64,000 bases of DNA from Escherichia coli (GCF_016026235.1 NZ_CP065613.1); one strand, 5' to 3'; numbered from the stretch's first letter, positions 46,569 through 62,618 are shown. Notes: generated from the sequence alone by a model not told the origin. Numbers and translations: made by a program.

Positions 46569-47361
46569 ATTGCACAGGCCGTAAGAACCAAACCACGACT
46601 GAATGAAACTGGACTGGCGCCAGCAAGCCTGTTCAGACTGGGGCTGAACTTTTCCGGACTCTGAAAGATTACCAATACTCATCGTCCATCCGCTTGCTTT
46701 AGGCTGACAGGTTCATAATCAACGCAAACCAGAGCTGTACAGGCTTGGGCGCGGCTTTCAAACCAGTCGTGATCACGGCAATCAATTTTGAACTCTGCTT
46801 AACGGACATTTCTGTATAACCCTTACGGCAACGAAAAACGCGAAGTTAAAATTTTAGAAACCCAAAAACGTGACATGACTAAGTTTAGATTTCAGGGGGG
46901 GAGATCAAAAAATTTCGCTCTGTGCCAGAGCGGACATTCACGGAGCTGGTTCATTACCAATGAGGTTGGGCTTTTGAGGATAAATCAATGATCAGACGCC
47001 AACGTAAATCAAAAGCAACCCTAGAACGGAATTGCTAATCCAGTTTCTGACCATCGATTTTTCTAAAAAGTGTGCGTTTGCTACTACTTAGGTAGGTGCA
47101 GCTTTCTTAATCACCGGCAGCCACGTTATACAGGCCAGTTGATGGATCGATTGTTATCAATGATATCTTCATGAGTCGGTGTCTCACCCAGCTTACCGAA
47201 GCTGGCATAAAGTGAAGGCAGACGGGCCCGTCCTTCTCCCTTTTTCGCCAGAGGGAAAGCGCGAAGCATGGTGGCAGCCTCCCAGTCACAACAATAGGAT
47301 GGTGTGCACGGCTGCTGACGCCATGATTCAGCGATAGAGCCGGAAAATACGGGGTCAAAGC

Positions 47362-48655
47362 CTGAGGGATCCCCAGAAAATTTAGTAAACCATTATCATA
47401 TTGGTATACCGTTGCTGTAGAACTTTCAGCCCTGCGTCAAGTGACAGTGTGTTTAGTATGAGTGGAGAATGTCGAATCACATTCTCCGCCAGTTTTAATA
47501 ACGAGATGACTCGCCTGTGCTTCACTGTATTTGCCTGATATTTATGATGTATCCCTTTGTTTTCCAGGCTGAAACCGCTTAACCACATAATGATACTGGC
47601 TAATGTTGCGATCAGACTCAATACCGTGACCCGCCCGGATGAATGACTGGCACCAAACCGTAGTCCAAATCCCCAGCGAGGATTTTTTTCATCCCTGAAA
47701 TTTTGCTCAATTTGCATTCTACGGCTGTATAATTTCATTACCTGTTTTGGCGAGAACTCAGTACTGTTTGTGAAAATAAACCATGGTGATTTCCCGGCAG
47801 TACGAGCTTTAGCCGTCACCGATGGTCTGGTTGCTCTTTCCTTCGAGCGTTTAAATCTACGACCTTTAGGCTTACTTTTATAAAGATAAAAATGCCCTTC
47901 ATGTTGTGCATTTTTATCTCGACCCAGCAGGCCTTCACCTAAATAAATTGCTGTCGTTGATGCTTTTGTGCCTGAGTCCGACACCTTTTCCCAGCCATTA
48001 CCAACATTGTAATAATGATTGCCCAGTACCCGGCAAATATAGGTCCAGCCACGGGAGCGGAGCTGTTGGAACCATCGCCCTGAAAACCGGCATCTGTAAT
48101 AACAATGACATCAGTCCCGGGGGAAAAGCACTCAGCAAGCGATTCCAGAAAACGCTCATGTACATCTGCATTCGCTGTCTGTGATGATGGAACGACACAA
48201 CTCATCAACGGTAAAGAACGCCCGTCACATGCCAGGCTTGCCCGCAAAAGCTGAAAACGAGAGGCATGATAAGCACTCCAGTCAATGAGTATCACAACAC
48301 GAGACATTCCCCGCGTAATCTTTTGGGTAATTCGCTGAAAAATGGTGGAAACCTCATTTTGCAAATGTCGATTCCCCAACAGTCGATCCACCCGCTTTAT
48401 TTTGTTTTTAACTGATGCCGTACCGGTTAAATGACGCCCGATACTGGTAAGTGTGAGGGAAGCGCCATTTATTACAGCATTAGTTGCGTCAATCAGTGAT
48501 TTTTGACGGTAAAGATGCAAAGGGGCCAGTATATTGTTAAGGAAATTTTGGCATAATGAACGTGCAGGCATAGTGGTGATCTCCTTGAAATTGTTAGCAC
48601 AATCAATTAGATCACATCTCACTATGCCTGTCTTGTTTTCTGGGGATTCCTCAGG
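47362..48655 (-). mobile_element. IS4-family (IS10-like) insertion sequence, about 1.29 kb, with 9-bp target-site duplication
   Basis: Terminal inverted repeats ctgagggatcccc (47362..47374) and ggggattcctcag (48642..48654); 9-bp direct repeat ggtcaaagc at 47353..47361 and 48656..48664; boundaries +/-1 bp. Confidence 0.7.
47382..48571 (-). pseudogene. IS10-like DDE transposase, frameshifted
   Basis: N-terminal ORF (MPARSLCQNFLNN...VILIDWS...VIVITDAGFQ) and C-terminal ORF (...YSRRMQIEQNFRDEKNPRWGFGLRF...) align in order to IS10 transposase as I recall it, but are in different frames; frame switch near 47940..48070. Confidence 0.7.
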
Positions 48656-48768
48656 GGTCAAAGCCGGTATCATTAACCAGAGTCATCGTGACCTGTACTG
48701 CGGCTGGATGATCTCCTGCTACTGCAACTGCTAGGCGACCGCGGCTCCCTTCAGGTAGTCTGTTGTGG

Positions 48769-49607
48769 TCAACTAAAACTGGCCTCCGCGTTAGAGTTTT
48801 TCCAGTATCGGTTTTCTGATTCGTTTGGTGGTAACCCACCATTATATTCGTGCGGTCTTAGTGCGCTGTAATATCCAACGATATAGTCCGTTATTGCGTG
48901 AGCTGCATCGCTGAAGCTTACATAGCCCGTCGCTGGCACCCATTCGTTCTTCAGACTCCTGAAGAAGCGCTCCATTGGGCTGTTATCCCAGCAGTTTCCA
49001 CGCCGACTCATACTCTGCCTGATCCGGTATCGCCACAGTAACTGCCGGAACTGCCTGCTCGTATAATGACTGCCTTGATCGCCTGGAACATCACCCCGAC
49101 GGGCTTACCACGGGTTTCCCATGCCATTTCCAGTGCTTTCATGGTAAGCCTGCTGTCCGGCGAGAACGACATGGCCCAGCCCACTGGTTTTCTTGCGAAC
49201 AGGTCGAGAACAACGGCGAGGTACGCCCAGCGCTTACCCGTCCAGATATAGGTCACATCACCGCACCACACCTGATTTGGTTCCGTTACGGCGAACTGTC
49301 GCTCAAGATGATTCGGGATAGCAACGTGCTCATGACCGCCACGCTTATACCGGTGAGTCGGCTGCTGGCAACTGACCAGCCCCAGCTCTTTCATGAGTCT
49401 GCCAGCAAGCCAGTGCCCCATCTGGTAGCCTCTCTGGGTTGCCATTGTGGCGATGCTTCTTGCTCCGGCAGAGCCGTGGCTGATGCCATGCAGTTCAAGT
49501 ACCTGGCTGCGTAATACAGCCCGTCTGCCGTCTGGTTTTTCAGGACGGTTTTTCCAGTATTTGTAGCTGCTGCGATGGACCCCGAACACATGGCAGAGAG
49601 TGGCCAC
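48769..49607 (-). pseudogene. insO: IS911 orfB (insO-like), frameshifted
   Basis: Integrase-core homology (...[37 protein letters not shown]...) split between ORFs 49008..49607 and 48769..49011. Confidence 0.7.
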
Positions 49608-60035: not shown

Positions 60036-60941
60036 CTATATTTCCAGACATCTGTTATCACTTAACCCATTACAAGCCCGCTGCCGCAGATATTCCCGTG
60101 GCGAGCGATAACCCAGCGCACTATGCGGATGCCATTCGTTATAATGCTCGAACGCCTCTGCAAGGTTCTTTGCTGCCGTTAACCCGTCTGGTTTGGGCAT
60201 GATACTGATGTAGTCACGCTTTATCGTTTTCACGAAGCTCTCTGCTATTCCGTTACTCTCCGGACTCCGCACCGCCGTGTTCTTCGGTTCAAGTCCCAAC
60301 ATCCGGGCGAACTGGCGTGTTTCATTAGCCCGGTAGCATGAACCATTATCCGTCAGCCACTCCACTGGAGACGACGGAAGATCGTTGCCGAAGCGGCGTT
60401 CCACCGCTCCCAGCATGACGTCCTGTACTGTTTCACTGTTGAAGCCGCCGGTAGTCACCGCCCAGTGCAGTGCCTCACGATCACAGCAGTCCAGCGCGAA
60501 CGTGACACGCAGTCTCTCTCCGTTATCACAGCAGAACTCGAACCCGTCAGAGCACCATCGCTGATTGCTTTCTTTCACGGCCACTCTGCCTGTATGTGCC
60601 CGTTTCGATGGCGGTACAGCAGGTTTTCGCTCAAGCAACAGCGCATTCTGGCGCATGATCCGGTAAACACGTTTGGCATTGATCGCAGGCATACCATCAA
60701 GTTCTGCCTGTCTGCGAAGCAGCGCCCATACCCGACGATAACCATACGTGGGCAGCTCTCCGATAACATGGTGTATACGGAGAAGCACATCCGTATCATC
60801 AGTGTGACGACTGCGGCGGCCATCCATCCAGTCATCGGTTCGTCTGAGAATGACGTGCAACTGCGCACGCGACACCCGGAGACAACGGCTGACTAAGCTT
60901 ACTCCCCATCCCCGGGCAATAAGGGCGCGTGCGCTATCCAC
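60036..60941 (-). CDS. insD: IS2 InsD (OrfB, DDE integrase core)
   Basis: 301-aa ORF ...[36 protein letters not shown]... Confidence 0.85.
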
Positions 60942-61264
60942 TTTTTTGCCCGTCCATATTCAACGGCTTCTTTGAGGAGTTCATTTTCCATCGTTTTCTT
61001 GCCGAGCAGGCGCTGGAGTTCTTTAATCTGCTTCATGGCGGCAGCAAGTTCAGAGGCAGGAACAACCTGTTCTCCGGCGGCCACAGCAGTAAGACTTCCT
61101 TCCTGGTATTGCTTACGCCAGAGAAATAACTGGCTGGCTGCTACACCATGTTGCCGGGCAACGAGGGAGACCGTCATCCCCGGTTCAAAGCTCTGCTGAA
61201 CAATTGCGATCTTTTCCTGTGTGGTACGCCGTCTGCGTTTCTCCGGCCCTAAGACATCAATCAT
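60899..61264 (-). CDS. insC: IS2 InsC (OrfA)
   Basis: [56 protein letters not shown]... Confidence 0.85.
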
Positions 61265-62618
61265 CTGTACTCCAATGACTAGTCTAAAAACTAGTATTAA
61301 GACTATCACTTATTTAAGTGATACTGGTTGTCTGGAGATTCAGGGGGCCAGTCTATTCAGCGTGACACCACGCAGAATAAACGGAGCCATATTGCCCATC
61401 AAATCCATCCCCTGAGCCATGCCGCAGGCTGCAACAATACTGCCATATCGGACCCCGGCGCAGGCATTTCTCCAGTAACAGGGGGTTGTATTGTATTTTA
61501 TTGTGCCGGTTCAGGTGTGCGTTTCCCGGCGCGTCAGCACCGGCTTAACCAAATTCAACAGGGATAAAATAGTGCAAATAACCGAAGTATTACTTGCAGA
61601 ATCGGGGGAAGCATCCGGGGTTTTATTCAACAGGCTGTAGATCACTGACTGCGTCTGTTGGCCGTCCACTTCACGCGTCATTCGACCAGAGTAAATATTG
61701 ATGATTACTAGATTCGTGTATTTTATCAGGCATTTTACTTGCGAATAAATCCCCTTGCTATCCAGCGAAACCACACAGGTAGCTATTACCATATGTGGTA
61801 ATACACTAGTTACAGGAAAAATATGCAAGTTCCGCAATACGTTGTGTGTTGCTCCTTAGCCAGGATCTTTTCTTCCATGCGAGATATGACAACAATTTTG
61901 AGGAAGGATGTTCGTAACTGGTAGAGTTACTACAACAAGCATGGGAGGCTCTGACTCTGACAGACATTGTACTGTGGAATGTTGTTACAGGTTGGGGCGG
62001 CAACCGTGCCAGGAGACCATGAGCCGTTCACGGCATTAAAGGCCACACTTCAGTCGTTTACATTCCCTATGGTGGCAGGCATCTTCCATTAAGGCGTCAG
62101 AGCGTTACCAACGTTATGTTGTCATGGCTCATCTTTCATAGTCGATGCTTATCTGGTGGCTGAAGCTAGCCGCAGATAAAGAGTGTGAAGTTGATACCAT
62201 GGAGTGGAGTGACGTACAGGCAGGAGATTCGCTCTATGCAGGGTTGTGAGATGAATTCAAACCGGCTGGCAGCGCCAGTGATATTCGAAGATTCGTCCGG
62301 TTGTTACCCAGTATGCATTAAAAACCCAGACATTATGGACAATATAACGGCTTCTACAACAAGGAAGTGCCTGTTTACCATCCGGGTGTAATGACTCACC
62401 TTTGTGGGCTTTTGCCCGTCGCGCTCTTAACGTTGAAGACATTCTCTGCCTGCCGATTCAGGACTGCGACAAAAGCCATATCTGGCTACTGGTCAAGGAT
62501 GACCAGCGTCTGGAGTAGGTGATAAGCCAAATAGATAAGCTGGAATATGTGGTGAAAGTGCAACGTAATCAGTCCAACCCGACGATGTTTAACAAGATTG
62601 TGGTGTTTTTTCAGTAAG

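Follow-up and report, generated by a model that had tools for sequence, protein, structure and literature searches.

The stretch of Escherichia coli DNA analysed here, in the following referred to as the window, comprises 64,000 nucleotides of one strand of NZ_CP065613.1 (GCF_016026235.1) and harbours, at positions 46569-62618, a 16-kb block in which four insertion sequences (IS) of different type alternate with two modules of cargo genes. The make-up of the block, for which all coordinates are given as window positions, was established by alignment to annotated genomes and by the analysis of open reading frames (ORFs) and of profile hidden Markov model matches. Downstream of fecE, a spacer (46569-47362) which contains a hypothetical ORF of 85 amino acids from the region of K-12 yjhV, cut at its 5' end by the adjacent IS, is followed by ISEc60 (IS4 family, IS10 group; 47363-48653, minus strand), a degenerate IS911 (IS3 family; 48761-50006, minus strand), cargo module 1 (50151-54048, plus strand), IS600 (IS3 family; 54165-55425, plus strand), cargo module 2 (55536-59775, plus strand), an intact IS2 (60025-61355, minus strand) and finally the remnant of an acetolactate synthase small-subunit gene (ilvN-like; 62391-62617, plus strand, coordinates transferred by alignment). 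The four IS amount to 5.13 kb or 32% of the block, and once three IS1 copies situated upstream of it are added IS DNA makes up 11.6% of the window. An earlier sequence-only reading had reported four IS types within these 16 kb (ISEc60 being referred to as “IS10-like”), three IS1 copies upstream and two cargo modules, and all of these are indeed present, the four IS at or near the positions which it had assigned to them. We consider the block to be the distal portion of an already known mosaic accessory island (a variant of the KpLE2-type region which carries fec in K-12) that resides chromosomally in an enteroinvasive E. coli (EIEC) and whose history comprises two layers; we put the probability of this reading at roughly 85%. 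The type of feature as such, an IS-laden, fec-associated accessory island, is already known and here found in an EIEC chromosome, and its significance hardly extends beyond correct annotation.

The identity of each IS in the block is well defined. ISEc60 is 99.8% identical to copies annotated under this name, its two ORF halves both match the NF033591 transposase profile, and the element is bounded by the terminal inverted repeats TGAGGGATCCCCAGAAAA and TGAGGAATCCCCAGAAAA and flanked by the direct repeat GGGGTCAAAGCC. Its transposase frame is split owing to one C missing at 48078-48081, where the window reads CCC and the NCTC assembly GCA_900449985.1 reads CCCC. As all other copies of ISEc60 are likewise one nucleotide longer at this homopolymer, the apparent frameshift may be a sequencing error or else a very recent inactivating mutation. 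Nesting of ISEc60 within IS911 was considered and rejected, the end of IS911 being located at 48761, about 107 bp from ISEc60. IS911, delimited by TGTTGTGGTCAAC... and ...GTGCCACCTCA, is 97% and 90% identical to the pieces of K-12 IS911B and matches IS3-family profiles. Its orfA extends over 49663-49965, but orfB has fallen into two pieces, 49008-49607 and 48769-49011, and because of this frameshift the copy is probably inactive. IS600 measures 1261 bp, close to the 1264 bp or so expected of this element, and encodes orfA (54229-54528, 99 amino acids) as well as orfB (54564-55382, 272 amino acids) in the -1 frame. It is 99.7% identical to the annotated IS600 fragment of K-12 and 99.4% identical to an IS600-family copy on the invasion plasmid pINV; a 3-bp target duplication was not found at its flanks. 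IS2, with a length of 1331 bp, is 99.6% identical to K-12 IS2K, its TnpB matches PRK09409 at 301 of 301 positions (728 bits), and it is inserted into a tiny alcohol-dehydrogenase (adh-like) remnant with the 5-bp target duplication TTCAG.

Both cargo modules are intact. Module 1 consists of shf, which encodes a polysaccharide deacetylase, capU, virK and an lpxM/msbB2-like gene, none of the four being disrupted, and module 2 of three equally undamaged genes for a BCCT transporter (55536-57533), a DUF2254 protein (57596-58873) and an AcuR-type TetR regulator (59119-59775). Since all seven cargo genes are intact, the description of the block as “gene-decay-rich” in the sequence-only reading is overstated. 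Apart from IS, the block contains only tiny adh-like, ilvN-like and yjhV-like fragments, which it has in common with other carriers of the island. The ilvN-like remnant is annotated as a pseudogene in every carrier examined and is ancestral to the island. The lesions in lgoD, fimD and transposase genes which that reading had listed are real, yet the lgoD and fimD remnants lie outside the block.

Comparison with the KpLE2/fec region of K-12 MG1655 (NC_000913.3, 4.496-4.520 Mb) reveals the scaffold on which the block is built. In both genomes fecIRABCDE is flanked by IS1 on the fecI side (IS1F in K-12) and by yjhV and IS911 on the fecE side, and these junctions are orthologous, as is characteristic of a KpLE2-type island. 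The spacer between fecE and yjhV is 99.6% identical to K-12, residues 7-85 of the 85-amino-acid ORF mapping to 47365-47129, and together with IS911 it aligns contiguously with the IS911B locus, while the IS1 on the fecI side aligns with IS1F from its very end; the identities of these contiguous alignments range from 97% to 99.7%. IS2 and IS600 sequences as well as many pseudogenes are also shared with the K-12 region. In contrast, K-12 lacks both cargo modules, its IS911 is interrupted by IS30D together with an IS600 fragment whereas that of the window is flanked by ISEc60, it possesses IS4 but no ISEc60, and its yjh, sgc and nan genes separate the region from fim. A P4-type integrase was not found in the block, and Rfam and tRNA scans gave no match, and hence no tRNA, in the whole window, so that the insertion at tRNA-leuX which is a feature of KpLE2-type islands is not seen within it. 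The end of the island may, however, lie beyond position 64000, in which case the leuX/integrase feature would be out of view.

Beyond K-12, the island is found in E. coli strains which are not enteroinvasive. In MS15047, RIVM_C036569 and CV839-06, none of which is ipaH-positive, gene order, the positions of IS911 and IS600 and the adh-like and ilvN-like remnants coincide with those of the window at 99.0-99.5% identity; these carriers comprise a Swedish cerebrospinal fluid isolate, Dutch human isolates (RIVM) and a Chinese pig strain. At least 80% of the block is present in 90 genomes, with 0 of 20 among the matches listed being ipaH-positive, and the best coverage of the block in any complete genome amounts to 92%. 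The non-EIEC islands differ from the window in that they lack ISEc60 at its site and have acquired other late insertions, namely a group II intron, IS100, ISEc23 or ISEc45. In the RIVM strains (NZ_CP086627.1, 6898-10364) it is IS911 which is interrupted by the group II intron (ltrA), as it is in K-12 by the IS600 fragment and IS30D; IS911 at this locus appears to be a recurrent landing pad.

These comparisons suggest that the older of the two layers would be a scaffold inherited with the island and common to ordinary E. coli. It would include IS911 beside fecE, IS1 beside fecI, the adh-like and ilvN-like remnants, and IS600, which would have joined the shf-capU-virK-lpxM module to the BCCT-DUF2254-acuR module. 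Altogether, four of the window's seven IS copies (IS911, IS600, the IS1 beside fecI and that at 13270) are inherited, being common to K-12 or to non-EIEC E. coli. The more recent layer would be specific to the EIEC lineage and would consist of ISEc60 and IS2, presumably acquired by simple transposition into non-essential DNA with target duplications left behind, and of an IS1-associated deletion which would have taken fimC with everything upstream of it and cut fimD short. With their flanking repeats, GGGGTCAAAGCC and TTCAG respectively, ISEc60 and IS2 are simple insertions. ISEc60 is absent from this site in the three non-EIEC carriers and in the related strain FDAARGOS_943, and it is present there in GCA_900449985.1, in JARKNJ01 and at a contig end of EIEC strain 4608-58. 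IS2 is either absent from the non-EIEC carriers or located elsewhere, the RIVM strains having theirs at a different site, while its insertion site in the window is shared by FDAARGOS_943. On this account the cargo genes would have stayed intact while IS accumulated in dispensable spacer and old IS DNA, and the pile-up would have arisen here because insertions into such DNA are without cost.

The assignment of the strain to EIEC relies on its closest relatives. Over 31.5 kb (30581-62084), which are covered by two loci of GCA_900449985.1, the window differs from this NCTC assembly by no mismatch and a single indel, and its FecA is matched exactly on contig UGFA01000002.1 (4.56 Mb). The same assembly contains a contig of 274,525 bp which encodes exactly the IcsA of EIEC pINV plasmids, adjoining VirA, a hallmark of the invasion plasmid pINV. 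The closest complete genome is that of FDAARGOS_943 (NZ_CP065615.1), which is 99.8-99.9% identical over the chromosomal segments flanking the island and 99.6% identical within it. No more than 9 of the 5426 complete E. coli genomes contain ipaH-like DNA; FDAARGOS_943 is among them, with five chromosomal ipaH places, one of which is an intact ipaH3 next to prophage tail genes. Further sister strains harbour plasmids of the pINV type. In the EIEC strain FDAARGOS_945, whose plasmids include NZ_CP065610.1 and NZ_CP065612.1, the pINV-type plasmid carries ipaH9.8, ospI, icsA, virA, virB and the full ipa-mxi-spa region; in FDAARGOS_941, the part examined contains ipaH9.8, ospG and ospI. An exact match to the TraB of FDAARGOS_945 was obtained in another NCTC assembly (UFYN01) and not in UGFA01, for which reason the window is not assigned to this strain. 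Thus, the twin assembly provides icsA and virA, while the ipa-mxi-spa genes are seen solely on the pINV of FDAARGOS_945. Finally, a draft contig of EIEC O143:H26 strain 4608-58 (JTCO01) encodes an identical FecA and ends 60 nucleotides into ISEc60 at the very same site. Because the twin has the icsA-virA contig, the sister is ipaH-positive, sister plasmids are of the pINV type and 4608-58 shares its FecA, we classify the strain as enteroinvasive, as judged from genome comparison. The resemblance to Shigella/EIEC proposed in the sequence-only reading is thereby borne out as far as EIEC is concerned. Of the two checks it had suggested, that for an invasion plasmid gave a positive answer in the 274,525-bp contig, while that for ipaH was positive in the sister strain, with five places, exact look-ups with four IpaH variants giving no match in the twin assembly.

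The near-identity to GCA_900449985.1 also bears on whether the apparent IS nesting and the frameshifts arose as artefacts during assembly, the region being rich in repeats. The sole difference between the two assemblies, a change of homopolymer length in the ISEc60 transposase, speaks for such an explanation. Yet over 31.5 kb the structure recurs base for base in an independent assembly, the insertions possess clean target duplications and the same junctions recur in several other assemblies, which renders an artefact extremely improbable. Somewhat more weight, albeit still little, can be given to the view that the window stems from ordinary E. coli, commensal or extraintestinal, in which IS density is an inherited state of the island and silent on pathotype. 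The six IS types and eight pseudogenes around fec in K-12, the occurrence of the island with IS911 and IS600 in a cerebrospinal fluid isolate, in RIVM human isolates and in enterotoxigenic E. coli strains from pigs, and the intactness of 49 of the 52 reference genes in the window are all in keeping with it. It is largely refuted, and in our opinion improbable, in view of the icsA-virA plasmid contig in the near-identical NCTC assembly, the ipaH-positive sister strain and the near confinement of ISEc60 to ipaH-positive genomes.

That the window stems from a Shigella species proper, in an advanced state of Shigella-type genome reduction, is very unlikely. In its favour, IS1, IS2, IS600 and IS911 form a set typical of Shigella (PMC7373316), the fim cluster has been inactivated, isolates labelled Shigella flexneri contain exactly this fimD remnant, and S. 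dysenteriae has ISEc60 on pINV plasmids. However, the exact matches to CapU and FecA, located on a contig of 5.07 Mb, bear the label E. coli; for CapU, they are recorded exclusively under accessions labelled Escherichia coli, the NCBI organism label being E. coli and not Shigella. Moreover, the nearest relatives are E. coli records, 94% of the window's reference genes are intact, and the literature describes the genomes of EIEC as larger than those of Shigella and less decayed (PMC4319576). The placement of the island in an EIEC chromosome, which we prefer over these alternatives, has to be held against several observations which count against it. EIEC status is read from a near-identical independent assembly and from sister strains and not from the source record itself. 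Look-ups with IpaH3 of FDAARGOS_943 and with IpaHa, IpaHd and IpaHe, i.e. one IpaH of a sister strain and three of unrelated EIEC, returned no match in GCA_900449985.1, although 100% identity was required and one residue difference would therefore hide a match. IS counts exist only as lower bounds and for the sister strain FDAARGOS_943 instead of the source genome. IS1-bearing places are likewise numerous in close non-EIEC relatives such as MLI023K1 and 2018-05-2CC, where they range from 34 to at least 40. ISEc60, in turn, also occurs on many plasmids of E. albertii and on a few plasmids of ipaH-negative E. coli, and for the flow of IS from pINV into the chromosome discussed below the direction is read from sequence identity only.

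The conclusion that the strain is an EIEC does not follow from the density of IS and pseudogenes, from which the sequence-only reading had derived the resemblance. Within 21 kb around fec, the commensal-derived K-12 MG1655 carries IS2K, IS4, IS911B, IS30D, an IS600 fragment and IS1F, hence six IS types, along with eight pseudogenes (intB, yjgX, yjhD, yjhE, insO, insM, yjhV and insB7). Since K-12 is as rich in IS and pseudogenes at this locus and four of the seven IS copies of the window are inherited, IS density is not diagnostic here. A Poisson test of IS density, which gave a P value of about 3e-7 against a genome-wide rate of 32 IS, was discarded because its null model does not hold, IS being clustered in islands as the K-12 control demonstrates. 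From the IS density of a single fec/KpLE2 window, EIEC or Shigella can therefore not be told apart from commensal E. coli; what is informative are lineage-specific insertions and the IS family, i.e. ISEc60, the IS2 site and the IS1-linked deletion in fim. What the window shows is an inherited IS-rich island scaffold with only modest decay.

At the level of whole genomes, complete E. coli chromosomes contain a median of 32 IS copies (interquartile range 22-57), whereas three EIEC lineages have 71-164 and Shigella has 194-286 (PMC7373316). FDAARGOS_943 has 38 ISEc60 places and at least about 36 IS1 places, together at least about 70 copies, and a query bearing IS1 hits at least 40 places in this genome versus 4 in NCTC86. 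As some non-EIEC relatives are also rich in IS1, its abundance is not specific to EIEC. The IS expansion of EIEC and Shigella described by Hawkey et al. (2020, PMC7373316) resembles the present case in that IS1, IS2, IS600 and IS911 occur in a pINV-bearing lineage and that near-identical IS are found on pINV and chromosome. It differs in that it is a genome-wide property, whereas we are dealing with one window in which most IS of the block predate the EIEC lineage.

The best indicator of EIEC in the window is ISEc60. At an identity of at least 99% it was detected in 17 records from 9 of the 5426 E. coli genomes, eight of these nine being ipaH-positive (Fisher p = 4e-24), and in the plasmid collection both EIEC and S. 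dysenteriae have it on pINV plasmids. Between the ISEc60, IS2 and IS600 copies of the window and those on pINV of FDAARGOS_945 and FDAARGOS_941, the identity amounts to 99.4-99.9%. According to a published idea, pINV seeds the chromosomes of EIEC and Shigella with IS (PMC7373316), and a flow from plasmid to chromosome would fit our data; from the near-identical copies on pINV of the sister strains, we infer that the chromosome may have been seeded in this way. ISEc60 is not among the five IS elements which are named as common to Shigella in PMC7373316, and those mentions of it which we found in the literature do not, judged by title, concern EIEC. It is tempting to regard ISEc60 as an under-recognised IS which is spread along with pINV and whose copies have multiplied in one EIEC lineage or more, a suggestion we make tentatively and with some doubt. 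If true, it could be a chromosomal marker of exposure to pINV and a sixth driver of EIEC genome remodelling, and its association with ipaH could, if it held in larger collections, give a hint of an EIEC background from a single locus.

Module 1 has a counterpart on virulence plasmids. The shf-capU(rfbU)-virK-msbB2 locus of pINV and pAA plasmids contains the same four genes in the same order, and the pINV plasmids of FDAARGOS_945 and FDAARGOS_941 each carry their own shf-capU-virK-lpxM module, to which the window (49905-54082) is 96.8% identical at the DNA level. The copy in the window differs from the plasmid locus in being a chromosomal paralogue within an island which is also present in non-invasive E. 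coli, and in being followed by IS600 and not by IS630. Because the chromosomal module is a paralogue of the pINV module, the EIEC lineage carries two copies of it and, with the core lpxM included, probably three lpxM-type acyltransferases. CapU is the most divergent protein of module 1, with 96.7% identity to that of MS15047. As for module 2, the segment 55536-60024 with the BCCT transporter, the DUF2254 protein, the AcuR-type regulator of acrylate utilisation and the alcohol-dehydrogenase remnant constitutes a conserved module, which may be a decayed uptake unit with a putative function related to osmolytes or acrylate.

In FDAARGOS_943 the island (NZ_CP065615.1, 31287-42711) is far more degraded than in the window. 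A nest of roughly 10 kb, made up of ISSso6, an IS66-family element, IS21, IS600 and ISSfl3, divides its IS2, and an IS1-linked deletion took the fec genes and most of fim. The first 50 kb of the 155-kb plasmid of this strain (NZ_CP065616.1) contain a truncated ligase of the NEL (IpaH-like) type with about 74% identity to ipaH, in addition to K88-like fae fimbrial genes, phoC and a GNAT/DUF1778 toxin-antitoxin pair. The exact IpaH3 of FDAARGOS_943 recurs in an NCTC assembly with an icsA-bearing contig of 288.6 kb, and the FDAARGOS stock may hold a reduced pINV.

The three IS1 copies upstream of the block, each of 768 bp and belonging to two sequence variants about 8% apart, are located at 13270-14037, between brnTA and mdtM and common to many E. 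coli including NCTC86, at 36214-36981, abutting the truncated fimD, and at 38019-38786, upstream of fecI and orthologous with K-12 IS1F on the fecI side. A comparison of their flanks revealed no 9-bp target duplication at any of the three, and since they lack it, each is probably the trace of a deletion or recombination mediated by IS1 and not of a simple insertion. The fimD remnant (35014-36213, minus strand) retains residues 480-878 of 878, its truncation coinciding exactly with one end of an IS1; fimC is deleted together with the genes upstream. A loss of anti-virulence or surface functions is accordingly apparent for type 1 fimbriae, from the truncation of fimD at IS1 and the absence of fimC; cadA, ompT, nadAB and speG lie outside the window.

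The 49 of 52 (94%) reference genes which are intact across the window include uxu, gntP, the fec operon and lgoRT, so that little genome reduction is visible within it. Immediately beyond the block follows an intact gene for a DeoR-family regulator (62619-63404, minus strand). The interval between yjiA and mdtM (12510-14040) contains only the brnT/brnA toxin-antitoxin pair and IS1, as in many E. coli; on the K-12 map we take this interval to be the hsd/mcr/mrr immigration-control region. The lgoD pseudogene (3383-4403, minus strand) has lost 17 bp near 3985, between two CTGCGGG repeats, which shifts its frame. This lesion, a deletion between 7-bp direct repeats and not the work of an IS, is very recent because lgoD is intact in the sister strain FDAARGOS_943.

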